Below, in pieces: positions 1 through 35,974 of a stretch of 64,000 bases of DNA (positions within the stretch are counted from its first letter, which is position 1; each line of letters begins with the position of its first letter). The stretch covers positions 308,104 through 372,103 of the forward strand of contig CAVQUX010000015.1 in NCBI GenBank assembly GCA_963716925.1, given 5' to 3'. The notes under the pieces are model-generated. The model was given only the letters and a program-made list of their open reading frames with translations, ran no database searches and had not been told where the DNA came from. This stretch comes from an uncultured Acidobacteriota bacterium (GTDB taxonomy: Bacteria; Acidobacteriota; Vicinamibacteria; Marinacidobacterales; SMYC01). A program made the position numbers and the translations under genes.

Positions 1-276
1 CCGTTCGTGGTCCCGTAGGTCACCGCGACGCGGTCGCCCTTCTCCAGCTCGGCGAAGATCTTTCGCTCTCCCTCGACGAAGATCTGGCTCGCCGCGTCCA
101 CATGGAACTTCATTTCGGCGGGTTCGCCCTTCTCCGTGCCCTTGACGGTGAAAGTGTAGTCCTTGGTGTCGACGGCGACGATCTCGCCGTCATAGCGTTT
201 CTCCTGAGCCGCCGCGAGTCCGGCGACCAGCAACAGCAAAACCGTGAGCTCTGATACTCGGACCGCCAAACGATTC
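1..276 (-). CDS. small secreted tandem-repeat protein (5' end with start at 276; 3' end runs off the window); paralog of 35393..35974
   Basis: Reverse translation gives MNRLAVRVSELTVLLLLVAGLAAAQEKRYDGEIVAVDTKDYTFTVKGTEKGEPAEMKFHVDAASQIFVEGERKIFAELEKGDRVAVTYG, closely matching the 35393 gene product in signal peptide and repeat unit. Confidence 0.6.
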
Positions 277-808
277 ATTGTCGTTCTCCTTCTTTCTTGC
301 GCGAGCGCCAGCTCGTGCTTCCGATCGAAGGCTAGCGCGCGCGGCATTGCCGCTCGGTTGCCGCCGGGTTAAGGAAATTTCATCGAGGAAAAGCGGCAGG
401 TCGGCGCCAGGGCGGCTCTCCGAGCTTCTTCACGGTCGCGAGAGAGAACGAGCCTTATACGGTAGGTCCTTCACGCGCGCTTCGGGGATCGTCCCCTTTG
501 CCATCGGTGTTCGGCGTTCTCCTGCTTGATTCGTTGAGATACGCCGACCGCTTCTTGTTTCGAATAGAGATCATGGAGAAATCGTGCCCGCCGCTCCCAT
601 GAGATCGGGCATGCAACCGACTTAGCTTCTTCTCGGTATCGACCTCGTAGATGTCCGCCGCATCGCCACATCCCGGACGGGGCACCCGCCCCTCGGTGCG
701 TTCATCGACGATTCGCCAGATGTGTCGCGGTCCGTTCGACAACGTCGAGGTGGCGTGCAGTAGAATCGCCGCGAATTCAACGAGGACGGCGCATGGAGGC
801 GAGATCCT

Positions 809-1708
809 ATGGAGAACGTGTCGCGCTCATGGTGGGACCGGCTGCTGGGGATCATCCGCACGCTGTTCTGGATCGCGCTCGCGCTCGTGGTGCTGCAGCA
901 GCTGTACGGGCCATGGAGGACGGCGGCGACTCGCGCCGATCTGCTCGACCGCCTGCAGCAGGAACGCAAGTCCCGCGTCATCGCGATGATCCACCGGCAG
1001 GAAACGGTCAGCGTCTTCGGTCTACCCGTCTCCAGTTCAATCGGGATCGAGGACTCGGAAGCGGTTCTACGGGCCATCCGGCTCACCCCTCCCGATCAGC
1101 CGATCGATTTGATCCTGCATACTCCGGGCGGGCTGGTGCTCGCGGCCGAGCAAATCGCGCACGCGCTCGTTGAGCGTCCCGGCAAAGTGACGGTGATCGT
1201 GCCGCATTACGCAATGAGCGGTGGCACTCTGATCGCGCTCACCGCCGATGAGATCCTGATGGACCCGAATGCCGTGCTGGGCCCGGTGGACCCGCAGATC
1301 GGGGACATGGCGGCGGCATCGATCGTGAAGCTTCTGGAACTGAAGCCGACCGCCCAGATCAGTGATGAGATGCTGGTCCTGGCCGACGTGGCGCAGAAAG
1401 CTCGCGTGCAGGTGGCAACGTTCGTGGCCGAAGTGCTTCTGAAGCATCTTCCGAAAGATCGCGCCGTGGCGCTGGCCAAGGTGTTGAGTGAGGGGCGCTG
1501 GACCCATGACTTCCCGATCACCGTGGAAGCCGCGACGCAACTCGGGCTGCCCGTGTCGACCGACATGCCGCCGCTCATCTATGAATTGATGGATCTCTAT
1601 CCTTCATCGGGCGAGGGCCGTCCTTCGGTCATGTACGTGCCGCTGCGCCGCGCTGTGCCCGCCGGAGGCCCGCGGCAGGACGCCCCTTCCCCGTCGCGGA
1701 AGCGATGA
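809..1708 (+). CDS. membrane-anchored SDH-family (ClpP-fold) serine protease
   Basis: N-terminal TM helix; motifs LILHTPGG...VPHYAMSGGTLIALTADEILM...GPVDPQIG typical of the serine dehydrogenase proteinase family; intact 299 aa ORF. Confidence 0.65.
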   Translation: MENVSRSWWDRLLGIIRTLFWIALALVVLQQLYGPWRTAATRADLLDRLQQERKSRVIAMIHRQETVSVFGLPVSSSIGIEDSEAVLRAIRLTPPDQPIDLILHTPGGLVLAAEQIAHALVERPGKVTVIVPHYAMSGGTLIALTADEILMDPNAVLGPVDPQIGDMAAASIVKLLELKPTAQISDEMLVLADVAQKARVQVATFVAEVLLKHLPKDRAVALAKVLSEGRWTHDFPITVEAATQLGLPVSTDMPPLIYELMDLYPSSGEGRPSVMYVPLRRAVPAGGPRQDAPSPSRKR

Positions 1709-2502
1709 GTACCATGAGCACTGTGCTCTCACGCCGCCCGACCTTTCTCATCGTTCTTACGATTGGTTTTGCGTTGGCGCCGGACCGCCTTGTGCGTGCG
1801 CAGGCGACAGAGACGATCACCATCCGTGGGCAAACGCAATCTCTCCGCCTCTACGGGACGCGCGGCGGTCCTCCGGTGATCGTCTCCAGCGGCGACGGCG
1901 GTTGGATCCACCTCGGACCGCACGTCGCCCAGGCGCTCTCAGCCAAGGGATTCTTCGTGGTGGGCTTCGACGTCAAGGCGTATCTCGAGAGCTTCACCTC
2001 CGGGAAGGTCACTCTGAAGCCCGAAGACGAACCGGGCGACTACAAGGTGCTCGCCGATTTCGCCGCGCGCGGGAGTACGCAGAAGCCGATTCTGATTGGA
2101 GTTTCCGAAGGTGCGGCGCTGTCCGTCCTGGCGGCGACCGATCCCGAAACGAAAGAGTCGATCGCCGGGGTGCTCGGATTGGGTCTTCCCGAGGTGAATG
2201 AGCTGGGCTGGCGGTGGAAGGACTCGTTGATATACGTGACCCACGGCGTGCCGAACGAGCCGACGTTCAGCACCGTCGCGATCGTCGATCGGGTGGCTCC
2301 AACCCCGCTCGCCGCAATCCATTCAACCCAGGACGAGTTCGTTCCGCTGTCGCAGGTGCAAAAGATCCTCGACGCCGCCAAGGAGCCGAAGAAGCTCTGG
2401 ATCGTGAAGGCATCCGATCACCGGTTCAGCGACAACCTGGCGGAGTTCGATCGGCGGCTCCTCGAGGCGATTGCCTGGGTGACCGCGAACGTCGCGCGCT
2501 GA
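1705..2502 (+). CDS. VirJ/AcvB-family alpha/beta hydrolase (single domain), likely aminoacyl-phosphatidylglycerol hydrolase partner of MprF
   Basis: Signal peptide, SGDGGW motif, 265 aa; ATGA start/stop overlap with upstream gene; sits immediately upstream of mprF. Confidence 0.65.
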   Translation: MSTMSTVLSRRPTFLIVLTIGFALAPDRLVRAQATETITIRGQTQSLRLYGTRGGPPVIVSSGDGGWIHLGPHVAQALSAKGFFVVGFDVKAYLESFTSGKVTLKPEDEPGDYKVLADFAARGSTQKPILIGVSEGAALSVLAATDPETKESIAGVLGLGLPEVNELGWRWKDSLIYVTHGVPNEPTFSTVAIVDRVAPTPLAAIHSTQDEFVPLSQVQKILDAAKEPKKLWIVKASDHRFSDNLAEFDRRLLEAIAWVTANVAR

Positions 2503-2510
2503 GGTTCCCG

Positions 2511-5063
2511 ATGTCTGAGCGGCTGCGTCGCGGCGATCCCGGTCGCCGTCGGCCTCGCGCTGTTCCTCGCCGCCCTCGAGGTGCTTCGCGTCGAGCTGCG
2601 GGCGGTCAGTTGGCATGAGCTCACGGCGGACGTGATCCGCACGCCGCCTTCGCAGCTCGTGCTCGCCTTGCTGCTCACGGCCCTCAATTACGCGGCTCTC
2701 ACTGGCTACGACCTGCTGGCGTTCGCCTACATCGGCAAGACGCTTCCGCGCGCGCGTATCGCTCTCGCGTCGTTTCTGGCGTACGCGATTTCCAACAACG
2801 TCGGGTTCGCGATGTTGTCCGGCGCCTCCGTGCGGTATCGCTTCTATACGCGGTGGGGAGTCACGGCCGAGGAGCTCTCGCGGATCGTCTTCTCGTACTC
2901 GGTGACGTTCTGGCTGGGCCTGTTCGGGTTGGGTGGACTGAGCCTCGTCGTCAGTCCCTTGCCGAGCGTGCGCGGTCTGCCCGCGCAGCAGCTCCTGGCG
3001 CCGATCGGTTGGCTGCTCATGCTGGTGCCACCGGCCTATCTGCTGGCAACCGTGGTGCGACGGCGGCCGCTGCGCATCCGGAGCTTCGAGCTGCCGTTGC
3101 CCTCGCCACGGATCGCGGCGGGTCAAGCACTGGTTTCCGCCGTCGACTGGGCCTTGGCGGGGGCCGTGCTCTATGTGTTGTTGCCGCCGAGCGCGCTGTC
3201 CTTTCTGGAGTTCCTCGGCACGTTCCTGGTTGCGATTCTTCTCGGAATGGCCAGTCACGTGCCCGGCGGTATCGGCGTGTTCGAGGGACTGATGGTCCTG
3301 CTCCTCAAGCCGTACCTGACCTCGGGGCAATTACTCCCGGCGCTCGTCGTGTATCGCGCGGTCTACTACCTGCTGCCGCTTACCGTCGCAACCCTCGGCC
3401 TCGTCGCCGACGAAGTGCGGCAGCGCCGCGCCCACGTGGCGCGCATCAGCGCCGTCGTCGGTCAGCTGACGGAGCAGGTCACGCCGCGCGTGCTGGCAGC
3501 CTTCACGTTTCTCGCCGGGCTGGTGTTGCTGTTCTCGGGCGCAACGCCCGCAGCTGCCGGGCGTCTCGAGTCGCTCAATCGGATACTGCCCTCTGGAGTG
3601 ATCGAGGCGTCGCACTTCCTCAGCAGCGTGGCCGGTGCGGCGCTGCTGATTCTGTCGCAAGGGCTGGCGCGGCGCCTCGATGCCGCCTACTACCTCACGG
3701 CAACGACGATCGTCGCCGGGATGGCAGCATCTCTGCTGAAAGGATTCGATTACGAAGAGGCGGTGCTGCTACTGCTGGTCTTCCTGGTGTTGCGGCGGGC
3801 TCGGCCGGCCTTCGATCGCCGCGCGGCCTTTTTCGACACCCGCTTCTCCGCGGCGTGGATCGCGGCACTGGTCGGCGCGCTCGGAGCCTCCGTGTGGCTG
3901 GGCTTGTTCGCGTTCAAGCACGTAGACTACTCGCACGAGCTCTGGTGGCAGTTCGAGGTTCACGGTGAAGCCTCGCGATTTCTCCGAGCCTCGGTCGGTG
4001 CGGTCATCTTCCTGCTGTTGTTTGGATTTGCCCGCTTGATCGGATACGCGCCTCACGAAGCGCCCACCCCGGTCGACGCCGACCTAGAGGACGCCGGAAA
4101 GGCGATCGCCGCACAGACATCGACCTCCCCCTACCTGGTGTATCTCCGGGACAAAGCGCTGCTGTTCAACGACGATCGAACCGCGTTCGTCATGTATGGA
4201 GTCCAGGGTCGCACCTGGGTCGCGCTCGGCGATCCCGTTGGCCCGGACGATCGGCTCAGCGATCTCATTCGCCGCTTCCTCGAACGGTGCGATGATTTTG
4301 GCGGCGTTCCGATCTTTTACGAAGTCGGCAAGACTCACCTGCATCGGTATGCCGACTTCGGCCTGACGTTCGTGAAGCTGGGGGAGGAAGCGAAGGTGGA
4401 CTTGACGACGTTCACAGCTGGAGGGGAGCGAGGCGACCAAATACCGCCAGTCGATTCGTCGGTTGGAGAAAGAAGGGGGCTCCTTTCGCATCGTCGAGCC
4501 CGCTGCCGTTCCAGCGATCATGGACCAGCTCCGCGCGGTGTCCGATGACTGGCTGAGAGCCAAGGCGAGCGCGGAGAAGGGGTTCTCGCTCGGGTTCTTC
4601 GACGAGGCGTACGTCTCCCGGTTCCCCGTCGCCGTCATCGAGCGCGGCGGCCGAATTCAGGCCTTCGCGAACGTCTGGCCCGGGCCAAAGCAGGTGGAGC
4701 TCTCGATCGATCTGATGCGATATCGACCGCGACGCGCCCAAAGGCGTGATGGAGGCTCTTTTCGTCCACTTGATGAAATGGGGCCAGGAGCAGGGGTATC
4801 GCTGGTTCGCGATGGGCATGGCGCCCTTGTCCGGCTTCGAAGACTCGCCCGTAGCCTCGCTCTGGAATCGGCTCGGCGCCTTCCTGTACGAGCACGTCGA
4901 ATCCGTCTACAACTTCCAGGGACTGCGCGCCTACAAGGACAAGTTCAACCCGATCTGGGAGCCGCATTATCTGGCTTATCCGGGTGGCCTTCGCCTGCCG
5001 CGCATCATGGCAGACGTCTCCGCGCTCGTGGCGGGAGGCTATCTGAAGGTCTTTCGAAAGTGA
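2511..5063 (+). CDS. mprF: phosphatidylglycerol lysyltransferase MprF (flippase plus synthase domains), read through about 3 frameshifts
   Basis: MSERLRRG start in one frame, then IPVAVGLALFLAALEVLRVELRAVSWHEL...GGIGVFEG in the next; C-terminal synthase domain split across ORFs 2581-4548, 4463-5134 and 4746-5063 (EKEGGSFRIVEP..., YRWFAMGMAPLSGFE...). Confidence 0.7.
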
Positions 5064-5077
5064 AGTCCGCTTTCGTC

Positions 5078-5506
5078 TCAGACCGTTCTTGGCGGCGGTG
5101 GCATCAACGGACCGCTTCTTGTTCCACAAGGTGATGTGGACAGGAGGCCCTCCCCTTCGCGACGCGCCTTGACGAAGAAGATAGCCGTGGCAACCAGGTT
5201 GTGTCCCTCCGTGCGAAAGCGAACCTGGACCGTGGCACCGACGCCGATCGTGCCCTCGCGCTCCGTGGAACGGCTCAGAACGAACGTCATCTCGCCTGGA
5301 GTCTTGCCGACCCGAGTGATGACGAGCCTGGTCGCATCGACGGACTTCACGACTCCGCTCACCGCGTGGTCGGGCACGGGTTTCTTCGGCGGGGAAGATT
5401 CTGCCGTTGTGTTGGGCGAATCCGCCTGGCCGGCTGCCGCGCCGCCTGCCAGGGGAACCGCCGAAAGTGCCCCGACGAGAAGAGCCGTCGTAATTCCCGT
5501 TACCAT
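5078..5506 (-). CDS. hypothetical secreted protein, single beta-rich repeat related to the 35393/1-276 family
   Basis: MVTGITTALLVGALSAVPLAGGAAAGQA signal peptide, then VSGVVKSVDATRLVITRVGKTPGEMTFVL...GATVQVRF repeat pattern; alternative upstream ATG at 5571. Confidence 0.4.
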   Translation of the reverse strand: MVTGITTALLVGALSAVPLAGGAAAGQADSPNTTAESSPPKKPVPDHAVSGVVKSVDATRLVITRVGKTPGEMTFVLSRSTEREGTIGVGATVQVRFRTEGHNLVATAIFFVKARREGEGLLSTSPCGTRSGPLMPPPPRTV

Positions 5507-5703
5507 CTGAAGCACCCAGCTCTCGGCCTCTTGCCGACTCCGACCAAGTCCCTTTCGCCCCCCGAATGCCATCTCACGAGTCCTGGCGGAAAGGTCTGAT
5601 TGCGGAGGCCTATTCCCCTCATCTACCGCTATTTGACTCGCCCCAGATGAGGGACACCTGATCCTCAGATGAACTCTTGTTAAGGTTCGTGGGCAACCAC
5701 GGC

Positions 5704-7130
5704 CGCGGTAGCCGACAGCCAGCACCCGCCGTCCGTCGGCGCTCAGCTGGTTGCACACCGCGGCGGAGGCTTCCCTCGCGGTCGCATCGAGCGCGGTGAC
5801 CCGTCCGTCGATCTCCTGGGCATCGCAGATCGCGAGCAGGGACTCCGGCGCGCCCTTGGCGATCAGCAGGCGCTGCCGCGGGTCGTCCGGCGTGGACACT
5901 ACCACAGACAAACGGCGACGTTCGAAGTCGAACGGGATTTCGTCTATCTTCGCACAAGCCGAAGCATCGGCCGACGCCGTTTTGAAGAATCGCCGCGTCC
6001 AACGGACTGCGAATGCCCGTCTGAAAACGGCTGTTGAGTGAAGCCAGCGCCAGAGGTCGCGGCGATACCTCACCCGCCGGACCCAGCGAGCGATCGAGGT
6101 GCATCACCCCGGTCGTGAGCGTTCCCGTCTTGTCGGTGCACAGGACGTCGATGCTGCCAAGGTTCTGAATCGCGGGAAGGTGTTTGACGATGACCTTGTC
6201 TCGAGCCATCCGCAGGGCGCCCTGGGTGAGCGTGACCGTTGCGATCATCGGGAGGAACTCCGGTGTCAGCCCGACCCCCAGCGCCACGGCAAAGAGCAGC
6301 GATTCGAGCGCATCGTGCTTGACGACGATGCCCATCAGCAGGATGAAGAGCACCAGCGCGGTGGTCGTTCGCAGAATCAGGAGGCTGAAGCGCCGCAAGC
6401 CGCTTTCGAACTCGGTCTCGGGCACACGGCTGCCCAGTCTCGTGGCGATGTCTCCGAACAGCGTCCTGGGCCCGGTCGCCGTCACGATCGCCGTCGCCGT
6501 TCCGCTGACGACCGACGTACCGAGGAAGACGAGGCCCGGCGCCTCGGGCCCCGTCGTTCGCCGGGTCTCGTCGGCGCTCGCCATCTTGTCCGCCGGCAGC
6601 GATTCGCCCGTCAGCATGGATTGCTGAACCGAGAGATCGCGCGAGTCCAGCAGGCGCGCATCCGCGGGCACGAGATCCCCGGCCGACAGGCGGACTACGT
6701 CTTCAGGGACGAGCTGCCGCAGCGGGACCTCCTGCCAGGTTCCGTCGCGGAGCACGATCGCCGTTGGCGCCACCGTCGCCCGGAGTCGTTCGGCCGCCCG
6801 CTGCGAACGATACGACTGCCAGAAATTGACGCTCACGCTCACCAGGATAATCGTGACGATGATCCCCGCATCGACGTCCTCGCCGAGCCAAGTTGAAACC
6901 GCACTCGCCACGAGCAAGATCAAGACGAGAGGGTTGGCGAACAGGCGACCGATCTCGACCACCGCCGAGAAGCGCCGCGTCGGGGCCGGCTCATTCGGAC
7001 CGTACTCATCGAGGCGGCGTGCGGCCTCGAGGCTCGTCAAGCCGGACGAACGCGGACGCGACTCGGGGTCGCCCGTCCGTTCGCTCAACGGCGCACGTCC
7101 TGGGCGGAGGGCAACTGCGACGCGTCCCAT
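5704..7130 (-). pseudogene. P-type ATPase (MgtA-like) N-terminal two-thirds, frameshifted near 6030 and truncated after the N-domain
   Basis: GLTSLEAARRLDEYGPNEP, TGES, DKTGTLT, then KIDEIPFDFERRRLSVVV...RVLAVGYR in a second frame; no P-domain C-terminus or TM5-10; reading frame runs on into the 5078-5506 ORF. Confidence 0.55.
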
Positions 7131-8536
7131 CCGCCGCCGAGGGCCTGGATCAAGGACACGCTCGCGACCAGGCGTCTGGTGAGGATGTCGACTGCCGCCC
7201 GTTGATTCTGCAGCAAGCTGGTCTGCGAGGTGATGACTTGCAGGTAGTTCGCGAGTCCCCCCGATATTGGATCGTCGAGATGTCAAGCGACTGCTGCGCG
7301 GCTGCGACCGCCCGGTCGACGATCTCTGCCTCGTGGGAGAGGATGCGCAACTCCGCCAGAGCTGTCCTCCACCTGTTGGAATGCCGTCAGTACGGTCTGA
7401 CGGTAATTCGCCACGGTGGCGTCGTAGGCGGCTTCGGTCAGCCTGACTTGAGCGCGGCGCTTGCCCGCGTCGAAGAGCGTCTCGGCCAACTGTACTCCCA
7501 CCGACCAGAGGCGGGTCGGCACCGTGAGCAGGTCGACGATGGCCGCGGCCTGCGAGCCCACGCTGCCGCCGAAGCTCAGGGCGGGGTAGAACGCCGACTT
7601 GGCGACGCCGATCTGTTCGTTCGCTGCCGCGACCTGCCGCTCGGCGGCGGCGACGTCGGGCCGTCGTTCGAGAAGCGTGGAAGGAAGGCCGACGACGACT
7701 GGCGGCGGCGGCGACTGAGTCGGCGCCGCAGGCATCGACAACGCGGACGGTGGCTGTCCGATCAGCACGGCTATGGCGTGCTCGAATTGGGCCCGCGGAA
7801 TGCCCAGGTCGGCCAACTGCGCGCGGGCGGTTTCCAACTGCGTTTGCGCCAGGGCCACGTCGGCCATCGACGCGACACCGCCTTCGTATCGGTCCTTGGT
7901 CAGCTGCACGTACCGTTCGTACGACTGTACGGTGGCCTCGAGCAACCGCCGCTCGGCGTCGAGTCCCTGAATCTGGAAATAGTCGGCGGCGAGTTCCGCC
8001 TGGTACAACAACCGGGCATTCTCCAGGTCCGCGGCGGACGCCTGCGCGACCGCTGAATTTGCCGCGACGCTGCGTCGGATGCTCCCCCAGACGTCCGCTT
8101 GATAGGTCACGTCAATCGGGATGTCGTACAGGCGCACGCCGGACACGGCACCGGTTCCGGAAGCCGTGGCGGACGGGGTCGCGGTCACGGTGGGGAACTG
8201 ACCCGCCCGGGTGACGCGCACGGCCGCCTTGGCCGCGCGGAACTGCGCCTCGGCGGCCAAAACGTTCTGGTTCGAGATGCTCACCTGGTCTTCGAGCGCG
8301 TCGAGCCGCGGGTCGTTGTACGGGCTCCACCACTTGCCGCGGGGTGCGCCGTCGTTGGGCTGCGCTTCCTTCCAGCCGGCGGGCAGCAGCTTCCCCGAAC
8401 GCCGGCGGGGCCGGCACGTCAGGACGCTGGTACTTCGGACCGATCAGCGCAGGCGTTCGAACGAGCAGCACGCCGAGCCGCGCGAAGCGGGGAGCACGGT
8501 CATAGCGATCCGGTCGATCGGACCGCGTTCATTCAT
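7085..8536 (-). CDS. outer-membrane efflux protein (OMF/TolC/NodT family), at least 3 frameshifts
   Basis: [12 protein letters not shown]...[16 protein letters not shown]...[14 protein letters not shown]...LGGGWDASQ assembled from 4 frames; a 6-G run at about 7245 would restore the frame with 7 Gs. Confidence 0.7.
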
Positions 8537-9766
8537 ACCGCAGCGCCTCGATCGGATCCAGGAACGCCGCCTTGCGCGCCGGGTAGTAGCCAAAGAACAC
8601 GCCCACCAGCGCCGAGAAGAGAAACGACGTCAGGATCGACAGCGCGCTGACCTCGGTGGACCATTGCGCGAAGTGCGAGATCGAGCACCGACGCCGTCAG
8701 CCCGACCACGATCCCGATGATTCCACCGAGCAGGGAGAGCGTCACGGCTTCCACCAGGAACTGCGAGAGGATGTCGCGGCGTCTTGGCGCCGACGGCCAG
8801 CCGCAGGCCGATCTCGCGCGTGCGTTCGGTCACCGAGACCAGCATGATGTTCATGATCCCGATGCCGCCGACGATCAGCGACACCGACGCGATCGCGCCC
8901 AGCAGAATCGACATCACTTGCGCCGAGGTTTCCTGGGCGGCGAACACCTCGGTGAGATTGCGGATCGTGAAGTCGTCCTCCAGACCCGGCAGGATCCGGT
9001 GCCGCTCGCGCAGCAGCGCCTCCATCTCCTGGATCGCCTGGTCCATGGCCTGCGGGCTCATGGCCTGCACCATCAGCGAGCCGACCGCCTTGGCGTTGGC
9101 CTTGTTGGCGCCGAGGACCTTCTGCTTGGCCGTGGAGATCGGCAGCAGGATGACGTCGTCCTGGTCCTGACCCGTCGGTGACTGGCCCTTCGGCGTCAGC
9201 ACGCCCGCGACGGTGAACGGCACGTTCTTGATGATGACGACCTGACCGGTGGGATCGCTGTCGCCGAACAGATTCGTCGCGACGGTTTCACCCAGCACGG
9301 CGGTTTTGGCGGCGGCATCCACGTCCTGCGTCGTGAAGAACTGGCCGGACAACATCGTGTAGTCGCGGATCGTCATGTAGTCCGGAGTCACTCCCTGGAC
9401 GGTCGTGGCCCAGTTGTTGTTGCCGTACACCACCTGCACGCCGCCGCGCACGGTAGGGGCGACGAGCGCGACGGACGGGCACTCGGCCGCGATGGCCTTC
9501 GCGTCGTCTTCCGTCAACGTGGCGACGCCGCCGGAGCCGAGCCGGACGCCGTTGCTGCTGATGCTGCCCGGCAGCACGATGATCAGGTTGCTGCCGATGC
9601 TCTGAATCTGCTCCTGGATCCGCGCGGTCGCGCCGTCGCCCACACCCACCATGGCGATCACCGCCGCGACGCCGATGATGATACCGAGCATCGTGAGCGC
9701 CGAGCGCGTGCGGTTCACCTCCAGCGCGCGCAACGCGATCTTCACGCTGGTGAGGAGCTTCTTCAT
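8529..9766 (-). CDS. MacB/FtsX-type ABC transporter permease (separate from the ATPase), at least 2 frameshifts near the C-terminus
   Basis: [15 protein letters not shown]...[10 protein letters not shown]..., then [18 protein letters not shown], then [19 protein letters not shown] in three frames; ATGA overlap with upstream ATPase stop. Confidence 0.75.
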
Positions 9767-10523
9767 GCCGACACCACCTCGTCCGCCGGATCGGCGGGAA
9801 GCTGCTCCAGCTCCTTCCGGGCATCGCGCGGCTGCTCGATCCGCTCGTCCCGCCGCAGTCTGCCATCTTTGAAGTGCAGCGTCCGGTTCGCGTAGCTCGC
9901 GATGTCGGGATCGTGCGTGACGACGATCAGGGTGATCCCCTCGTCGCGGTTCAGACGCTGGAAGATCGCCATGATCTCGACGCCGGTCCTCGAGTCCAGC
10001 GCTCCGGTGGGCTCGTCCGCCAGGATGATCCGGGGATCGTTCACCAGTGACCGCGCGATGGCCACGCGCTGCTGCTGGCCGCCGGAAAGCTGGCTCGGTT
10101 GATGCTCTTCGCGTCCGGCGAGCCCCACCGCGAGCAGCGCCTTCCGCGCCCGCTCCCGGCGCTCGGGCGCGGACGCGTCGGTATACATCAGCGGCAGTTC
10201 GACGTTCTCCGCGGCGCTGGTCCGCGCCAGCAGGTTGAACTGCTGGAAGACGAACCCGATCTTCTTGTTGCGGATCTCCGCCAGCTGGTCGCGATCGAGC
10301 GCTCCGACGCTGATGCCGTCCAGCATGTAACTCCCGGACGTCGGCTTGTCGAGGCACCCGAGAATGTTCATGAGGGTCGATTTACCGGATCCCGACGGAC
10401 CCATGATCGAGACGAACTCCCCGCGCTCGATCTCGAACGAGATGCCCTTGAGCACGTGTACCGGCACGTCCCCCAGCGTGGAAGTCCTTGACCAGATCCT
10501 TGACTTCGATGATCGACTGCCAT
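9763..10523 (-). CDS. ABC transporter ATP-binding protein (MacB/LolD-like), 1 frameshift at the N-terminus
   Basis: Walker [25 protein letters not shown], Walker [12 protein letters not shown]; N-terminal [15 protein letters not shown] is out of frame with [10 protein letters not shown] at a CCCCC run near 10475. Confidence 0.8.
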
Positions 10524-10528
10524 GACGC

Positions 10529-11905
10529 TCAGAATCCCGGTCCTCTGCGCCCGCCTGCGGGAGCCGGGACTACCGCCCGACTCGGGGGCTGCCTTCGCCA
10601 GCGCCGCGACGATCACGCGGTCGCCGTCCTTCAGGCCGCCCATCGGTCACCTCCGTGAAGGTGCCGTCGGTCTCGCCGGTACTGACCACGACACGGTGCG
10701 GCCTGTCGTTCACGTCCAGGATCCAGACAGCCTTTTCCGGTGCGGCGCCCTTCTCGACGCTGGCTGCTTCCGTTCGGGGCTCGGGGTGATAACGAAGGGC
10801 GGCGTTGGGGATCTTCAGCACATTCGGCCGCTGATTCACGAGAATCTTCACGTTCGCCGTCATGCCGGGAAACAGCTTCAGCTCCGTATTCGACACGCCA
10901 ATCACGGCGTCGTAGGTGATCACGTTCTGCACGTTGATGGGGGCCTTGCGGATCGGAGGTCACGGTGCCGGTGAAAGTCTGCCCTGGATAGGCATCCACG
11001 GTGAACGTGGCAGACTGGTTCACTCGCACGCGTCCCACGTCCGCTTCCGACACGTTCGTGTCCACCTGCATCTTCGTCAGGTCCTGCGCGATCAAAAACA
11101 ACGTGGGAGCCGCCAGGCTGGCAGCAACCGTCTGCCCGACATCCACGTTCCGTGACACCACGATGCCGTCCACCGGCGCCTTGATGTTCGTGTGATCCAG
11201 GTCGATCTGGGCCGACTGCAATGCCGCGGTGAACTGCTTCACCTGCGCCTGGTTGGAAGTCATCAGCGATTTCGCCACGTTCAATTGAGCCTGCGCCACC
11301 TTCACGCTGTCTTCCATCGCAGTCTGCTGCGCCATGAGGGCGTCGAGATCGGCCACCGCCGACTTGTACGTCGTCTGGGCGGTTTCGAGATCCTCTTTGG
11401 AGTCCGCGTCCTGACTGACCATGATCACGCGCCGATCGACCTTGACCTTGGCGTCCTCGGCGATAGCCTGTGCTTTCACGACATTCGCTTTGGCAGCGGC
11501 GAGCGAAGAGTTGGCGGCCTGAATGCCCGCCAGCGCCTGCTGAACCACGGCCTGGCTGTTGGCGACGGCGGCTCGGGCGGCGGCGACGTTCGCCTGTGCC
11601 TGATTCACCCTCGTCTGGAAGGGGGCCGGATCGATCTGGGCGATCAGCTCTCCCTTGGTTACCTTGGTGTTGAAGTCGGCGAACAACGCCAGAATATTGC
11701 CTGACACCTGCGAGCCCACTTGCACGGTGACGACCGCGTTGGGGTTCCCGGTGGCCGAGATGGTGACGTTGATGTCGCCGTGTTCGATCGTCGCCGTTCG
11801 GTATCGAACGCCGGACCGACTGCCGAGCCAGGCCCACGTCAGCAGCCCGGCAATCGCGCACGTGATGGCGCCAGCCAGGACAACCGTCTTCCTCTGCATA
11901 CTCAT
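10529..11905 (-). CDS. HlyD/MacA-family membrane fusion protein, 2 frameshifts
   Basis: TM anchor, long coiled-coil ([10 protein letters not shown]...), barrel/MP domain continues in ORFs 10570-10932 and 10368-10643 ([10 protein letters not shown]..., LKDGDRVIV). Confidence 0.7.
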
Positions 11906-12075: not shown

Positions 12076-12245
12076 GCGCCCCGACGATCCGTGCGCGCTG
12101 TCAACGAAGAAGTCGCGAAGACACCTCTGCTACCGTTTGGCTTCAATTCCGACGGTCTCGAGAGGGGATAACCGTGAGCCTGACCATTTCCTGCCCACAC
12201 TACCGTTGCCGCGCAGGCGCCCCTGACGACTCTCACACAGCTGAT

Positions 12246-22374: not shown

Positions 22375-22470
22375 TGCGCCTCACGATCCGCTGAACCGTG
22401 TCTCGTAGTATTTGCTTCATGATCACGAGATCGACTGCCGCATCAACCAAAAGGGGTTAGTCACACGTTG

Positions 22471-24994: not shown

Positions 24995-25002
24995 GATCCA
25001 CC

Positions 25003-26166: not shown

Positions 26167-26223
26167 GTCTGTTCCTCCACCGTGGATTTGACGCGAAAAG
26201 ACTGATGCGAACGTGAAGCCGCG

Positions 26224-26240
26224 ATTAATTCGGATTAATC
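26224..26240. promoter_or_regulatory. ATTAA-N6-TTAATC dyad motif (site 4 of 7)
   Basis: gcgATTAATTCGGATTAATCC, same flank as sites 1 and 2. Confidence 0.45.
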
Positions 26241-26267
26241 CCCGTCGTCCGTTGGTGGTCGCCGGTC

Positions 26268-26284
26268 ATTAAAAGGAGTTAATC
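26268..26284. promoter_or_regulatory. ATTAA-N6-TTAATC dyad motif (site 5 of 7)
   Basis: gtcATTAAAAGGAGTTAATCgg...tCACG, same flank as sites 3, 6 and 7; tandem with site 4, about 75 bp upstream of the PAP2 gene. Confidence 0.45.
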
Positions 26285-26358
26285 GGGGTTTCACGTCGCG
26301 CTCACGCGGGTTGCTGCGTAATACACGGAGACACACGAGCGTGTCGAGGAGAAGCGAC

Positions 26359-27297
26359 ATGACGTCATCTGGAATGATCCTGGTTCTTGCTGCGGCGCTG
26401 GGCGTGCCCGCCACGGGGCGAGCGTCGTCGAGGGACGACGGGAGCGTCGCAGAAACGGACCGCACGCGGCAAGCGGAGCCGGCCCAGCCCCCAGTGGAGG
26501 ACGGTGCTGTGTTGCCGAAGGAGCAGTCGCCGGCGATCGACCCATCGCAGACCAGAGCGGCCGAGGAGGACGTGCCGCAGGACGGGAAAACCGGATTACG
26601 CACGCTTTTCCGTGATCTTGGCAGCGACTTCGCGCACCTGCCGTCTCGCGATTCGCTCTTCGTCGCCAGCATAGGGGGTACCGCCGCTCTCGCCCTGCAC
26701 CCGTTCGACGCGACGTTCAACGAGCACCTCCAAGACTCATCGTTCTTCAGCGCTGGCGATCGGCTCGGAAACACGTTCACGCTCATGGGCGCGACGTTCG
26801 CCGTGTACGGCGTCGGGCTCGCGACCGGCCATCATCGCGTCACCCACGTGGCGATGGACGTGGTGCGAGCGCAGCTCGTGAGCGAAGCCCTGGTGCAGTC
26901 GTTGAAGGTGGCGGTGCGCCGGGAGCGGCCGGACGGCAGCAGCGGCTATTCGTTTCCGTCCGGCCATGCGGCGGTGACGTTCGCCACCGCCACCGTGCTC
27001 CAGCGGCATCATGGCCTCAAGTGGGCCCTGCCGGCCTACGGGCTGGCGACGTATGTGGCCATGTCGCGGCTTCACGACAACGTGCACTACCTGAGCGACG
27101 TCGTCTTCGGGGCGACCATCGGTACGCTGGTCGGGCGGACCGTGACTCGACACGGCCCCCAGAACTTCGCCTTCATGCCGATGGCGGTACCTGGCGGCGC
27201 GGCGTTTGTCGTCCTGTACTCACCCAGAGGCTCAATAGAGTGCGGCTTCAACGGACCTCGCCGAGTACCGCTGCGGTTCGCCCAGTCCAGTCATTAA
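26359..27297 (+). CDS. PAP2-family (acid) phosphatase
   Basis: KVAVRRERP, FPSGHAA and SRLHDNVHYLSDV motifs (KxxxxxxRP / PSGH / SRxxxxxHxxxD). Confidence 0.75.
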   Translation: MTSSGMILVLAAALGVPATGRASSRDDGSVAETDRTRQAEPAQPPVEDGAVLPKEQSPAIDPSQTRAAEEDVPQDGKTGLRTLFRDLGSDFAHLPSRDSLFVASIGGTAALALHPFDATFNEHLQDSSFFSAGDRLGNTFTLMGATFAVYGVGLATGHHRVTHVAMDVVRAQLVSEALVQSLKVAVRRERPDGSSGYSFPSGHAAVTFATATVLQRHHGLKWALPAYGLATYVAMSRLHDNVHYLSDVVFGATIGTLVGRTVTRHGPQNFAFMPMAVPGGAAFVVLYSPRGSIECGFNGPRRVPLRFAQSSH

Positions 27298-27441
27298 GGG
27301 AAGTTAAGCGGTCGCTCACGCTCCGATCATCGGCGAGAGGTCAAATGGAGTTGAGAGCATCCAGCGGTGCAGCGCCGGTGGCTCGGTGAGCCTCGGGCGG
27401 TGCCGCGAAAAAAGAGGAGAGACGTCATGAGACTTCGCCGT
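27288..27441 (+). repeat. about 155-bp upstream cassette (promoter, 5'UTR, RBS and first 5 codons MRLR), copy 1 of 2
   Basis: GTCATTAAGGGAAGTTAAGCGGTCGCTCACGCTCCGATCATCGGCGAGAGGTCAAATGGA...GCGGTGCCGCGAAAAAAGAGGAGAGACGTCATGAGACTTCGCC is near-identical to 34458-34610. Confidence 0.7.
27293..27309. promoter_or_regulatory. ATTAA-N6-TTAAGC dyad motif (site 6 of 7)
   Basis: tcATTAAGGGAAGTTAAGCggtcgCTCACG. Confidence 0.45.
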
Positions 27442-28041
27442 AGGAGTCAAGAAATGCTCATCCGACCCTTGAAGATCCACTGGTTTCCGGCCGCTTTGAT
27501 CATCGGCTTGCTCGGAGCGGCCTGCGCCGAAGCTCCCGAGAGCGAGGAAAAAGACGCGAAATCGGCGATCGCGATGGCCCGCGCCGCCGAGGCGGCAGTC
27601 TACGCCCCCGACACCCTCGCCCTTGCCGAAAAGGCGATGACGGATGCCGCCCGAGCGATAGACACCGAAGCGCACCGCTTCGGTCCGATGCGCAGCTACA
27701 GGGAAGCCTCGAGACTTCTCGAAGAAGCGAAGACCCGCGCCGATGAAGCGAAGGCTCAGGCGGAGCAAGAGCGCGAGAAGTGGATGCGTGACGCGAAATC
27801 CGCCGTCGCTGATGCACGCAGCGGGCTCGAGCAGGCGAATGCGGCCCTCGCCAAAGCGCCGAGACAGCTCGCGCAGCAGCCCGAGATGAAGAAGAGGGGC
27901 GAGGACTGCGAGAAGCTGCTCTATGACGCGGAGAAGGCCTTCGACGCCAAGAGCTACAAGGACGCCGCGGAGAAGGCCCGAGACGCTCAAGCCGCGGCGG
28001 ACGACCTTGTCGAGAGCCTCCTGGTGGGTTTCCGAGGGTGA
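27427..28041 (+). CDS. hypothetical lipoprotein, Ala/Lys/Glu-rich coiled-coil
   Basis: Signal peptide with lipobox LLGAAC; helical low-complexity body. Confidence 0.5.
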   Translation: MRLRRRSQEMLIRPLKIHWFPAALIIGLLGAACAEAPESEEKDAKSAIAMARAAEAAVYAPDTLALAEKAMTDAARAIDTEAHRFGPMRSYREASRLLEEAKTRADEAKAQAEQEREKWMRDAKSAVADARSGLEQANAALAKAPRQLAQQPEMKKRGEDCEKLLYDAEKAFDAKSYKDAAEKARDAQAAADDLVESLLVGFRG

Positions 28042-28165
28042 GCTGGGGAGTTTCCCAGGTGCGGGGTCCCGTATCGGTGGATAAGGTTCACGACCGGGGG
28101 CCTATCCGTCTCGCCTGTGCGAAGTGGACCATTTTCTACGCCGAAAGGCGCGAAGGAGAGGGGTG

Positions 28166-28582
28166 ATGCAGAGTGCGGTCTTGGTTGCCGGGAAGAGAAG
28201 CGCGGCCGTGGCTCGACGGGTCGAGAAGGTTTGGTCCGTCATACTCGCCGACGGCGAGGGAACGCGGATCAAGCCGTTCATCGAGATGTGGTTCGGCGAC
28301 GGCCGCCCGAAGCAGTACTGCACTTTCACCGGAACGCGCTCGCTCTTTCAACATACCGTCGACCGAGCGGACTCCTTGGCGCCGCAGGCCCAGCGAATCG
28401 TGGTGGCGGCAGCTCACCACGACCGGTACGTCCGCGAACAACTCGGCGATAGGGAGGGACGAGTGCTCTTTCAACCCCGCAATCGTGGCACGGCGCCTGG
28501 AATCCTCCTTCCGCTCACCTACGTCCTCGCGCTCGCCCCGGAGGCTCTCGTCGTCATTTATCCATCCGATCACTTCGTCTAG
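28166..28582 (+). pseudogene. N-terminal fragment of a sugar-1-phosphate nucleotidyltransferase (ManC/GMP-like), truncated after 138 aa
   Basis: ILADGEGTRIKPF...GRPKQY...NRGTAPGILLP...VIYPSDHFV then a stop; no continuation detectable in 28583-28899. Confidence 0.45.
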
Positions 28583-28899
28583 TCGCGCGAACTCGGATTG
28601 CGGATCAAACGAGCGATGGATAGGAAACGCTTGGGACGAGGGTTGCCCGCGCCACATCAATCACTCCGAACGACGCTCGAGCGCCTCGGCGTCTTTCGGT
28701 ACGGAGCGCAGGCGAGAGCCGGGCGAAAGATCAGGTCGGGGCCCGGTTGGAACGCTGACCCGGGAGTTCAGGGAAATGAAGGAATACGAGTTCGGCCCAG
28801 ACATCCTGCCTCTAGCATTCGAACGGTTCGTCTTCGCGGTTCACCCGCAGGTCGCTGTTGACCGGGGCGGAAAGACTCGCGCAGACAGGAGATTCGTCC

Positions 28900-29592
28900 A
28901 TGGATCCAATCACCATCATCGGCGTGGCCCTGGTGGCCATCGTTTCCATCACCAGTCACGAGGCGGCCCACGGTTTCGTGGCCGATCGTTTCGGCGATCC
29001 CACGGCGCGCGAGCAGGGGCGCCTTACCCTGAATCCGCTTCCGCACATCGACCTGTTTTTCACAATCCTGCTTCCGCTCGTGTTGATCCTGTCCCGCTCG
29101 GGCTTCATCTTCGGAGGCGCCAAGCCGGTTCCGGTGAACGTGTCGCGGTTGCGGAACCCTCGACGCGACTGGGCGCTGGTGGGCGCCGCGGGGCCGCTCA
29201 TGAACGTGCTCATCGCCCTCGTGCTTACGGTCCTGCTCTCGGCCGCCGCGCACCTCGGCCTCGCCGATGCGTCTTCGAGCCTGACGGAGATCCTCTCGGT
29301 GGGTATCTTCCTCAACGCGCTGCTCGCGATTTTCAATCTCATCCCGATTCCTCCCCTCGACGGGTCGCGAGTGCTCCAGTACTTCCTCTCCGGGGAGAGT
29401 CTCGACCTCTACCGGCGCGTCGAGCAGTTCGGCCTGTTGATCCTCATCGCCCTCCTCTTCCTCGTCCCATCGTTCCAGTTCTTTCTGGCGGACGCGATCT
29501 TCGGGCTCGTCGCGATTATCACGGCGCCGTTTGGCGTGTGGGCAGACGTCGAGCCGCTGCTCCGAAGTCTTCTATTTCCGCCCGGTACGTGA
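28900..29592 (+). CDS. site-2-protease-type M50 metallopeptidase (small membrane form)
   Basis: HEAAHG (HExxH) and [10 protein letters not shown] motifs; 231 aa, 4-6 TM. Confidence 0.75.
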
Positions 29593-29638
29593 TGGACGAC
29601 TCCGCGTTGTAGACTCGTACCGCGGATCGAGAACGAGC

Positions 29639-31770
<2,132 letters not shown>

Positions 31771-31901
31771 TTGTCAGAGATTCAGGAAGCGGCCGACGTG
31801 AACGCTATCAACGCGTTATCGACACCCGGGTCCTCCGCGACGGCTTGCGGGCATGAGTCTTGCGCATGATCCCAACGGTGGGGGAACGAAAGGGTGGAAA
31901 A

Positions 31902-32780
31902 ATGAGACGAATAGGCGCTCTCGAATTTGCCTTCGCGCTGATGCTTGTTCCCGGCCGCTCGATGGCGGGCCAGGAGGCGCTCTATACCGACGGAGAGCTC
32001 GAAGATTGCCTCCTGGCCGACCTGTCGCATCTCGACATCCACGGTCTCGACGTCCGGGTCGTCGGGGGCATGGTCGACGTTTCGGGCGAAGTGGGAAGTC
32101 TGGCCGAGAAGAAGGAAGCGGAATCGACGATAAGGCGAAGATCGCAGGTGCGCGACGTCTCCAACGAGCTTCGAGTGGCGCAGGTTCCCGATGCCGAGCT
32201 GCAGCGAGACGTCCTGGCGGCGCTCGAGGACAGCCGCCACTACACGATTTACGACGAGCTGAGCGCATCCGTCTCCGGAGGTGTCGTGACTCTCGCCGGT
32301 CGCGTGCCTCGGGACAGCGCTCTCGACGGAGTCGTGAGCGACCTGTCAAAGGTGCGGGGCGTCCGCGCGATCCAGAACGAGGTGCGAATCCTTCCCTACA
32401 CTCCGGAAGAGGAAAAGCTGCAGGAAGGGGTAGCCATCGACGTCTCGGCGGCTCTGGTGAAGCTCGATCGACGAACTTCTTCCCTCCATGTCGTCATCGA
32501 GAACGACACGGTCACTTTGAGCGGGATGGTCGGGGACGACATTGCGAGGAGAGCCGCGGAAGAGGCAGCCCGTCGATCGGCAGGCGTAAAAGAGGTACAG
32601 AATCGGCTCCGGATCGGGGAGCCCTGGACGCGACCGCGATCCTCGATACCGGAAGACTCTATCGATCGCGGCACGGAGCTTGCGAAGGCTCCCCGCGCCA
32701 CGGCTGCCCGCGCCTTTGCACGGCAGGACGGGTCACACCGCTATGCGGGGATAGACCTGGGCAGCAATGATCACAAGTAG
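31902..32780 (+). CDS. BON-domain periplasmic protein (three or four BON repeats)
   Basis: Signal peptide MRRIGALEFAFALMLVPGRSMAG; repeated BON-like segments. Confidence 0.65.
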   Translation: MRRIGALEFAFALMLVPGRSMAGQEALYTDGELEDCLLADLSHLDIHGLDVRVVGGMVDVSGEVGSLAEKKEAESTIRRRSQVRDVSNELRVAQVPDAELQRDVLAALEDSRHYTIYDELSASVSGGVVTLAGRVPRDSALDGVVSDLSKVRGVRAIQNEVRILPYTPEEEKLQEGVAIDVSAALVKLDRRTSSLHVVIENDTVTLSGMVGDDIARRAAEEAARRSAGVKEVQNRLRIGEPWTRPRSSIPEDSIDRGTELAKAPRATAARAFARQDGSHRYAGIDLGSNDHK

Positions 32781-33029
32781 AGTCGTGGTCGAAAGGAGCA
32801 GCAGGAAATCCGTGCCAATGCCAAAGATGCTGGTTCCTCCCGCAATCATGAAAGCTCGAAGCACATCGACCTCGTAGCTGAGCGGGTTGATCCGCGCAAC
32901 GAGACGCAACCAATCGGGCATGATCGCCAACGGGTAGATGGCGTTGCTGGCGAAGAATAGAGGCATCGTCAGGATCTGCCCGATCCCCATGAACCGCTCG
33001 CGAGTCTTGACGATGGCTGCGATGATCAA
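32733..33029 (-). pseudogene. C-terminal fragment of an ABC-2-type transporter permease
   Basis: Last 2-3 TM helices only (…INPLSYEVDVLRA…); no upstream remainder of the gene; overlaps the 3' end of the BON gene. Confidence 0.4.
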
Positions 33030-33099
33030 CGAAAGGGTGGCGAAGCAGCCGCGCCACCGCTATGTGCGCGCGGGGCGGACTGCTTTCCTCTCACGGGAC

Positions 33100-33847
33100 G
33101 TCGGGAGTGGCGCGGCCCGCCGCGCTCCTCTCCGACGATGAGAAACAGCCATTTGACCAGGCGGGTGGTCACCTCCTCGACATGCAGCGCCGGGTGGGCC
33201 GTCTGGATGAGCTCGGTCGTTCGGCCGAAGTACGTCCCAACGCCGGTCGCCACGACGACAGCGGTGGCCTCACCCCGACGAACGCTCGATCCGGAGTAAA
33301 CGGCTTCGTCCGCCGCCCTTTTGGCCTCCTGAGATTCTCCCGTCAGTGCAGACTGGTCCACCCGCAACTCGCCCTCGAGGATGAGTGCGTCGGCGGGGAC
33401 GATATCCCCCGCACGCACGCGCACCACGTCGCCTTTCACCAGCTCACGCGCTGCGAGAGGCTTCCAGGTCCCGTCGCGAAGCACTCGAGCCGTGACCTGG
33501 AGCCGGCGCCGAAGAGCGGACACGGCCGCCGAGGCGCGTTGCTCGTGCAGGAAACCGAGGGTCGCGTTCACCGTGAGCAGCGCGAGGGCGTTCCAGAAGT
33601 CAGCCCGCTTGTCGAGAATGAGGGAGAGGGCCACGATCAGCTCGAGCATCCACGCGGAAAGCCCCCAGAATTTGCTCGCGAGTCGAGCGAGCGGGTGAGC
33701 GCTCTTCTCGGGAACCTCGTTCGCACCCTCCCGGTCCAGCCTGAGCCTCGCCTCGGCAGCGGTCAGACCGGCCTCGCGGCTCGAGCCGAGGAATTGAATG
33801 GCGTCCGTCGCGGACTGGACCGGTTTGTGCGGTTCGATATCGGGCAT
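33100..33847 (-). pseudogene. N-terminal fragment of a P-type ATPase (PMA/H+ or Mg2+ type): TM1-2 plus actuator domain only
   Basis: GLTAAEARLRLDREGANEVPEK, TM helices, VLRDGTWKP...GDIVPADALILEG...ALTGES, then loss of homology; no DKTGT region follows. Confidence 0.5.
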
Positions 33848-33915
33848 CACCACGGCGGAGCTCGTCAGGTCGGTCCTCGGGCGACGAGCACGCGGATTGA
33901 CTCCAACGCGTCTGA

Positions 33916-34110
33916 GAGAGCCTCAGCGGGCTCGATCTTCAGAGTGAGCTCGCCAGAGCCGGGGCGTGTATTCCCGTCATTTTCGTCACCGGTCACGGTG
34001 ACATCGCGATGTCCGTGCGGGCTATGAAGGCCGGCGCGGTGGAGTTCTTCACGAAGCCGTTCCGCGATCAAGACCTTCTCGATGCGGTTCAAGACGCTAT
34101 CGAAGGCGGC
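33916..34110 (+). pseudogene. C-terminal half of a FixJ/NarL-type receiver domain (fragment)
   Basis: ESLSGLDLQSELARAGACIPVIFVTGHGDIAMSVRAMKAGAVEFFTKPFRDQDLLDAVQDAIE; in-frame stop immediately upstream; no HTH follows. Confidence 0.45.
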
Positions 34111-34140
34111 GCACGTCGAGCACCAGGCAGTCGGGAACGT

Positions 34141-34257
34141 CTCCGGTTGCTCCTGGTGCAGGAACTCCTGCGCCGAGCCGAAAGTCCCGACGCCGAGCCC
34201 CACCGAGCGGAGGAGACTGCTGAGTGCTTCGCGAATAGGTGGGGCGTCATCAATCAC
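34141..34257 (-). pseudogene. N-terminal 39 aa of a FixJ/NarL-type receiver domain, on the opposite strand and head-on to the previous fragment
   Basis: MIDDAPPIREALSSLLRSVGLGVGTFGSAQEFLHQEQPE; the two halves converge at about 34115-34140, implying an inversion breakpoint inside one receiver gene. Confidence 0.4.
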
Positions 34258-34457
34258 ATACTGGCTCGGCTTCCTTCATGACCGACGCTCTGGCCTCTTC
34301 GCACCTAAGTGCAGTCTTACCACGACCATGTCAACAGGGATCGGCCGCGGGACCGGCGACCGAACCGAGGCGACGAGAAACAGGTTCTCCTGCCTTGCTC
34401 TTCCCTGTGCTCTCTCGGGCCAGTCAGCTCCCCGCGCACCCCCGGAAAGCGGGCAAG

Positions 34458-34610
34458 GGGGTCATTAAGCGGAGTTAATCGGTCACTCACGCTCCGATCA
34501 TCGGCGAGAGGTCAAATAGAACTGGGAAAACGGTTCGGCGTTGCGAGTGGCTCGGCGTTCAGCGCGGTGCCGCAAAAAAGAGAAGGAGAGACGTCATGAG
34601 ACTTCGCAAG
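34458..34610 (+). repeat. about 155-bp upstream cassette, copy 2 of 2 (see 27288-27441)
   Basis: GTCATTAAGCGGAGTTAATCGGTCACTCACGCTCCGATCATCGGCGAGAGGTCAAATAGA...GCGGTGCCGCAAAAAAGAGAAGGAGAGACGTCATGAGACTTCGCAAG. Confidence 0.7.
34464..34480. promoter_or_regulatory. ATTAA-N6-TTAATC dyad motif (site 7 of 7)
   Basis: gtcATTAAGCGGAGTTAATCggtcaCTCACG. Confidence 0.45.
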
Positions 34611-35231
34611 ATGGTGAACGCGTCGATGGTCGCCCTGGGGCTCGGCCTCGCCGCTCTGCCCGCGCTCGCGCGGGACAAGCCCCGATCCGCGGTCGACGAG
34701 ATTCGCAAAGAGCTGCTCCAGCTGCCGTATTACGGGGTGTTCGACTTTCTGGCGTTCAAGTACGACCAGGGATCCCTCACCCTGATGGGCTACGCCTATC
34801 GGCCCGTTCTGAAGAACGATGCCGAGAGAGCGGTGAAGCGGGTGGCTGAGGTCCAGACGGTGGAAAACCAGGTCGAGGAATTACCTCTGTCGCCGAACGA
34901 CGACAGTCTGCGTTGGCAGGTGTACTACGCGATCTATCGCGATCCCTTCCTGTCACGCTACGCACCCGGAGGCGGGCTCCTGTGGGGTCACCGGCATCCA
35001 TTCCTCGCCGGCACGTTCCTGCCGCTCGGGCCGAGTCGGTTCCCGGGCACCGAGCCGGCGGGCGACTACCCGATTCACATCATCGTGAAGAATGGCCGGG
35101 TCTTGCTGCTGGGAGTAGTGGATTCGGAGTCGGACAAGACAATCGCGGGTGTGCGGGCGCGAGAAGTGCCAGGTTCGTTCGCGATCGACAATGAGCTCGC
35201 TGTCGATCATCCGCCGTCGGGCAAGACGTAG
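34596..35231 (+). CDS. BON-domain periplasmic protein (two BON repeats)
   Basis: Signal peptide MRLRKMVNASMVALGLGLAALPALA; YGVFDFLAFKYDQGSLTLMGY and IHIIVKNGRVLLLGVVDSE BON-like segments. Confidence 0.6.
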   Translation: MRLRKMVNASMVALGLGLAALPALARDKPRSAVDEIRKELLQLPYYGVFDFLAFKYDQGSLTLMGYAYRPVLKNDAERAVKRVAEVQTVENQVEELPLSPNDDSLRWQVYYAIYRDPFLSRYAPGGGLLWGHRHPFLAGTFLPLGPSRFPGTEPAGDYPIHIIVKNGRVLLLGVVDSESDKTIAGVRAREVPGSFAIDNELAVDHPPSGKT

Positions 35232-35366
35232 GGGCGGAGTTGAAGGTGCAATCGGTGTTTTCAGTGGAAGAAATCGCAGGCTTGATCGCTGGTAGGTCGG
35301 CGTTCTTCGCCGGAAGGCCGCGCCCGTTGGCGCGAGCTGACCGAGGAGGAATTCCGGTCAATAAAC

Positions 35367-35380
35367 GTCCCGTACGGGAC
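35367..35380. promoter_or_regulatory. perfect 14-bp palindrome GTCCCGTACGGGAC, 13 bp upstream of the ATG (operator or 5'UTR hairpin)
   Basis: Seen directly, between the 35367 site and the RBS AGGAGA. Confidence 0.35.
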
Positions 35381-35392
35381 ACAAGGAGAAAG

Positions 35393-35974
35393 ATGATGGT
35401 ACATCGAATCATGTCGGTAGTGAGCCTCGGCGCCCTTCTTACGCTGTCGGCCGGTATAGCCGCGGCGCAAGAGAAGAAATATGAAGGCGAAATCGTCACC
35501 GTCGATACCAAGGACTACACTTTCACCGTCAAGGGTACGGCGAAGGGAGAAGTCGCCGAAATGAAGTTTCACGTCGGCAGGGAGAGCGAAGTTGTCGTCG
35601 ACGGCGAACGGAAGATTTTCGCGGAGCTCGGCAAGGGAGATCAAGTGACCGTCGAGTATGGAACCTCGGACGGAAAGCACACGGTGAAGCGCGCGGAGCG
35701 ACACAAGACCGCCGCGAAGGAGATGGCGCTCACCGGACAGGTGATCGCCGTTGATGCTGCCGCCCACACGTTTACCGTAAAGCGGAGCCAGGGCGGGCCG
35801 GTGGAGGAGATGAAGTTCCACGTCAACCCGACGACGCGGATCTATATCGGGACAGATCATCTCGAGCTCCTGAAACAGCTTCAGAAGGGAGACGACGTGA
35901 CCGTGCACTACATCAACGAGAGCGGAAACCAAATGGTCAGGCACGTAAGCAAGGCGAAGGCCAAGACGACCTGA
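35393..35974 (+). CDS. small secreted tandem-repeat protein (two repeats of about 75 aa), unknown function
   Basis: Signal peptide; repeat 1 EGEIVTVDTKDYTFTVKGTAKGEVAEMKFHVGRESEVVVDGE...; repeat 2 LTGQVIAVDAAAHTFTVKRSQGGPVEEMKFHVNPTTRIYIG... Confidence 0.6.
   Translation: MMVHRIMSVVSLGALLTLSAGIAAAQEKKYEGEIVTVDTKDYTFTVKGTAKGEVAEMKFHVGRESEVVVDGERKIFAELGKGDQVTVEYGTSDGKHTVKRAERHKTAAKEMALTGQVIAVDAAAHTFTVKRSQGGPVEEMKFHVNPTTRIYIGTDHLELLKQLQKGDDVTVHYINESGNQMVRHVSKAKAKTT

Follow-up and report, generated by a model that had tools for sequence, protein, structure and literature searches.

The closest described systems are the Pfam families DUF5666 (PF18914) and CusF_Ec (PF11604). To our knowledge, no function has been assigned to DUF5666, which often forms tandem arrays in secreted bacterial proteins, and a search of the literature on DUF5666/PF18914 returned incidental mentions only, with no functional information. 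CusF carries a Cu(I)/Ag(I) site that we take to consist of His36, Met47 and Met49 with Trp44 as the capping residue (E. coli numbering). Other points of comparison are YgiW and YobA, which belong to the BOF (bacterial OB-fold) class. In the window, that is, the whole 64,000-nucleotide stretch of acidobacterial DNA analysed here, three genes with no name or Pfam domain on record encode small proteins (copies A, B and C) that we compare with these families. The features discussed below are as follows.

1..278, minus strand: copy A, N-terminal 92 codons (signal peptide and most of repeat 1; the window edge cuts the gene)
2581..5063, plus strand: mprF (lysyl-phosphatidylglycerol synthase), split by frameshifts here and intact in locus L001
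5078..5506, minus strand: copy B, single-domain DUF5666-type protein of a separate subfamily (ORF with homologues)
7283..11905, minus strand: efflux operon near copy B
7283-8284, minus strand: NodT-type outer-membrane factor of this operon
9763-10467, minus strand: ABC ATPase of this operon
10631-11905, minus strand: periplasmic adaptor of this operon
34596..35231, plus strand: gene for a BON-domain secreted protein, 161 nt upstream of copy C on the same strand
35367-35380, plus strand: perfect 14-nt palindrome GTCCCGTACGGGAC, 12 nt before the ATG of copy C
35393..35974, plus strand: copy C, 193-aa precursor in which two OB-fold repeats follow a signal peptide (ORF and database match)
35393..35467, plus strand: Sec-type signal peptide of copy C, MMVHRIMSVVSLGALLTLSAGIAAA, assigned by inspection
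35468..35704, plus strand: first repeat of copy C, an OB-fold domain spanning roughly residues 26-104
35711..35956, plus strand: second repeat of copy C, an OB-fold domain spanning roughly residues 107-188
36123..37613, minus strand: VirJ/AcvB-family hydrolase, 496 aa, convergent with copy C

Copy C is a real gene at the position originally predicted, and its product is identical to a database protein (P0001) that is called from the second ATG at 35396 and has 192 residues. Its codon-position GC content of 0.60/0.38/0.75 is typical for genes of this 65% GC window. Copy A is also a real gene, though the frame first given for it, 1-276, is off by two nucleotides and contains stops; its ATG lies at 278-276 behind an AGGAG ribosome-binding site, and its reading frame is that of 1-275. 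Both this 533-kb contig and locus L001 encode the full protein (P0003, 192 aa, two repeats). To assign signal peptides, the sequences were inspected and searched with regular expressions. Nine of the ten members of the A/C family start with a basic n-region that leads into a hydrophobic core of 12-15 residues and an AxA-Q site, the tenth being a truncated gene call, and the family lacks Cys altogether, hence also a lipobox Cys. By this inspection the n-, h- and c-regions indicate Sec export. In copy C the predicted cleavage falls before QEK, at the AxA-Q position conserved in the family, and residues 1-23 have a pLDDT below 50 in the predicted structure. All four A/C repeats conform to the motif [GE]xIVxVDxxxxTFTVKGxxxGExxEMKFHV. 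The two repeats of copy C match each other with an E value of 1e-15 and 35% identity, and A and C share 74% identity over repeat 1 (BLASTP E 6e-35) and about 62-64% over the full 192 residues.

Searches of Pfam, NCBIfam and PDB sequences with the three proteins, and of the PDB also with a 10-sequence profile, gave sub-threshold matches only, to CusF_Ec, DUF5666, RimP SH3, ExtJ, a 'NOV5WD8W' family, azurin and UreE, of which the non-OB names were treated as noise. Against a gathering threshold of 27 bits for both PF18914 and PF11604, DUF5666 did not match copy C or the copy A fragment and scored 22.6-23 bits on copy B. CusF_Ec reached 19.1 bits on copy C (E 0.0012, profile positions 4-71 of 72, the matched stretch being repeat 2) and 12.9 bits on copy B. 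Within the A/C family, DUF5666 matches one of ten members (E 4.8e-5) and CusF_Ec matches four of ten at E<0.01, none of the ten attaining a Pfam gathering score. When the PDB was searched with a broader profile of 48 repeats, the only matches were weak fragments of ribosomal protein L19 and a full-length alignment to SilF with an E value of 0.13.

The link to DUF5666 is instead provided by relatives and by profile-profile comparison. The A/C profile matches 818 representative proteins at E<=1e-3; relatives found at E values of 1e-17 to 1e-39 bear two to eight DUF5666 stretches overlapping the matched region, and among those sampled DUF5666 scores 40-162 bits and CusF_Ec up to 82 bits on the same stretches. 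DUF5666 is also the sole family matched by 22 of 29 members of the copy B family, and hhalign joins this family to the A/C repeats, as detailed below. Moreover, the predicted structures form five-strand closed barrels that superpose on solved OB domains. Foldseek matches them to the CusF-type structures 3e6z, 1zeq, 2qcp and 2vb2 with E values of 9e-5 to 7e-4 and target TM scores of 0.70-0.80, and YgiW and YobA also appear among the fold matches. The original prediction placed the repeat in no named family and proposed profile searches and structure prediction as checks: the direct searches stayed below threshold, the indirect ones and the structural comparison succeeded, and the A/C repeat very probably has the OB fold of the DUF5666/CusF_Ec group. 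Since the superfamily is known, the repeat is an ordinary member of it and not a new fold; under the refuting condition that accompanied the original prediction, it thereby counts as a known type of domain.

In copy B a signal peptide and a low-complexity linker precede the OB domain (about residues 47-109), which is followed by a variable tail; the copy B sequence, GVVKSVDATRLVITRVGKTPGEMTFVL, differs from the A/C motif. Its start is ambiguous, 5506 agreeing with the homologues and the database call beginning at 5572. Several properties could suggest that an open reading frame here, chiefly that of copy B, is spurious: its GC content by codon position (0.64/0.59/0.70) departs from that of neighbouring genes (about 0.65/0.45/0.80), no clear Shine-Dalgarno sequence precedes the start at 5506, and a longer ORF (5078-6073) encloses the gene, which follows a truncated ATPase gene in frame. 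However, copy B has 106 homologues of 112-130 residues with a conserved domain and conserved synteny, and its AlphaFold core has a pLDDT above 90, while A and C both have strong coding signals and conserved homologues, so that a spurious origin is scarcely credible for any of the three.

The three genes were originally described as paralogues of one architecture. What they share is a small, exported, all-beta product that contains one or two repeats of about 80 residues; copy B has a single domain and a different sequence. Judged from their sequences, A and C are true paralogues and the products of an old duplication, given their DNA identity of 72% and the equal distance of C from the whole A clade. 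Copy B does not align significantly with C in a pairwise comparison (BLASTP E 0.16). The A/C profile gives B-family proteins only 7-13 bits. Profile-profile comparison raises the probability of a relationship from 45% with the 10-sequence profile to 97.2% (hhalign E 3.8e-11) with a 243-repeat profile, at about 25% identity. By these profile comparisons, the only ones that detect the relation, copy B is a remote relative of A and C and belongs to a separate, larger subfamily. No additional copies of the domain were found in a six-frame translation of the window. Close A/C homologues form 10 clusters among 5.8 billion proteins, all from Vicinamibacteria/Acidobacteriota; many of the wider relatives are long arrays of 5-11 repeats. 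That the repeat is novel and unplaceable, and its three copies a local lineage-specific expansion, is favoured by the failure of every Pfam and NCBIfam model to attain its cut-off on A or C, by the lack of a sequence-level match in the PDB and by the rarity of close homologues. The identified fold and superfamily nevertheless already largely refute this view. Copy B also lies in another subfamily, which numbers over 100 members and has a conserved synteny of its own, and the A/C duplication is old. We consider this view very improbable.

B-family genes in other genomes directly follow the outer-membrane-factor gene seen here, and in L008 and L009 B-type genes come after MacA-MacB-OEP and are convergent with mprF. 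In the window mprF is convergent with copy B across a 14-nt gap, and L009 is arranged alike. A two-component system with best matches to CztS/SilS/CopS, just under the NCBIfam cut-offs, lies near the B-type genes of the window and of L010. The A/C gene is not tied to one particular operon partner, and its neighbours vary by lineage. The pair of a BON gene and a copy C-type gene recurs in an independent Logan contig; an A/C-type gene directly follows an outer-membrane efflux protein gene in L012, is divergent from MgtA in L006, L011, L013 and L014, and is divergent from MgtE in L002, where a BON-domain gene is nearby. Other neighbours are BON, VirJ, MprF or SpoIIE genes. Overall, the genes beside close A/C homologues serve the envelope or cation handling. 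Several of the MgtA-linked loci come from one lineage and are therefore not independent. Pattern scans of genomes and of metagenomes for A/C contexts yielded four loci each because the patterns were bound to the EMKFH motif, and the context statistics are thus anecdotal. A mobile-element origin of the 31-kb segment holding B and C was considered and set aside; no tRNA genes were found and the junction shows AAG microhomology only.

The palindrome noted originally in the leader of copy C is present and perfect. It lies directly 5' of the Shine-Dalgarno sequence AAGGAG (35383-35388) and occurs once in the window against a chance expectation of 0.01; in homologues this position is taken by another GC-rich palindrome. 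At its gathering thresholds Rfam matched no riboswitch or known RNA, either across the window or at nine related loci, and a scan around copy C detected no sigma-70-like promoter and no meaningful terminator. The direct repeat TTCAC-N6-TTCAC precedes the homologues in L004-L007, is absent upstream of A and C, and occurs twice in the window against 2.0 expected; for want of enrichment it was rejected as a regulon signal in the window.

Based on the above, A and C are very probably Sec-exported soluble proteins, which would be periplasmic if the host envelope has the usual two membranes, and each mature protein is predicted to consist of two tandem five-stranded OB-fold barrels of about 80 residues. 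Each barrel may be a compact domain that binds a periplasmic ligand, of which a cation or some other envelope-transporter substrate is the most plausible, and might buffer this ligand or pass it to membrane transport systems. The supply of CusCBA by CusF is an analogy for such a hand-off, although the binding site would differ here. We advance this binding or hand-off function of the A, B and C barrels tentatively and regard it as possible rather than probable. The candidate site in A and C would comprise the invariant beta2/beta3 residues (TFTVK and E-M-K-F-H) and the R-H-x-T linker; as only about 25% of the 243 wider-family repeats have the Met and His of EMKFH, the site would be specific to the clade and not superfamily-wide. 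An accessory role for copy B in an ABC-type (MacAB-like) tripartite efflux pump is suggested by the conserved position of B-type genes, directly after the outer-membrane-factor gene and close to a two-component system of the heavy-metal type. The family assignment and the binding function together make up an explanation that, as a compromise between the two, we slightly favour.

The 5-11-repeat arrays among the relatives are compatible with a structural as much as with a binding role. The proteins could be ligand-independent components of the envelope, either stable beta-barrel 'beads' acting as spacers or general periplasmic stress proteins like BOF/YgiW, and in either case the adjacent BON-domain protein is a possible partner. 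The wider family consists mostly of 2-11-repeat arrays whose conserved G, V, D, T, F, L, GD and Y residues are mainly core or turn positions, BON-domain genes lie directly upstream of copy C and near the L002 homologue, and the fold matches to YgiW and YobA would suit a stress protein. In the A/C clade, however, the polar or ligand-type residues K46, E55, H59, E138, H142 and R102 are invariant and predicted from strand alternation to face outward, which suggests a specific site, and a structural role leaves the recurrent adjacency of both subfamilies to transporters unexplained. We regard it as unlikely.

A more specific version of the binding hypothesis, which we consider improbable, is that the EMKFH clade represents unrecognised periplasmic cation-homeostasis factors of Acidobacteriota, with a CusF-like OB scaffold, a new site and co-regulation with the Mg2+ importers MgtA/MgtE and the lysyl-phosphatidylglycerol system of MprF/VirJ. 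If so, they would act as sensors or buffers of divalent cations or of the surface charge of the envelope, and the TTCAC direct repeats spaced by 11 bp and the hairpin preceding the Shine-Dalgarno sequence, conserved in several leaders, would form the regulatory site. What is new is the assignment of three genes to the OB-barrel fold and DUF5666 superfamily, and a rare two-repeat clade restricted to Vicinamibacteria and missed by present Pfam thresholds, which could justify an extended DUF5666 model or an added subfamily model. The occurrence of DUF5666 members near efflux outer-membrane factors, Mg2+ transporters and MprF/VirJ offers a lead towards a periplasmic accessory or binding protein of envelope transport in a soil phylum with few characterised proteins; its value is modest and no new kind of system is revealed.

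Genuine metallochaperones of the CusF/SilF type, which would supply Cu(I)/Ag(I) to a copper/silver efflux pump, would share the fold described here. When verified CusF was aligned with the four A/C repeats and B, however, the His36 position was occupied by K, G or R, the loop bearing Trp44 was absent, and at most one Met aligned, so that A, B and C do not have the Cu(I)/Ag(I) site. As the metal ligands are not conserved, the three proteins are not CusF orthologues, and orthology was ruled out. All Pfam scores lie under the gathering threshold, the pump near B is of the ABC (MacAB) type, unlike the RND pump of CusF, and none of the three genes lies within a cusCFBA-type RND operon: A and C lie outside any efflux operon within the window, effectively monocistronic or paired with the BON gene. 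A metallochaperone role for the three is accordingly most doubtful. CusF (PDB 2vb2, 1zeq, 8bwv) also lacks the extra hairpin …VVVDGERKIFAEL… of the A/C repeats, and its domain is not duplicated in tandem as in A and C. PilY2 of Pseudomonas aeruginosa (PDB 3tdq) and generic OB folds (SSB, PriB and the anticodon-binding domains of aspartyl- and asparaginyl-tRNA synthetases) share 6-19% identity with no sequence-level relationship; no PilY2 chain stands among the listed PDB sequence matches, and the nucleic-acid-binding OB proteins are cytoplasmic, in contrast to the predicted export of A, B and C. DUF5666 resembles all three in having an all-beta domain of about 60-80 residues, preceded by a signal peptide and present as one copy or as a tandem array, and in the shared pattern G-x-V-x-x-V-D ... 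T-h-T-V ... F-x-V ... G-D-x-V-x-V-x-Y. From DUF5666 the A/C clade, which scores below its gathering threshold, is set apart by a fixed two-repeat architecture, the clade-specific E-M-K-F-H-V motif and an R-H-x-T linker.

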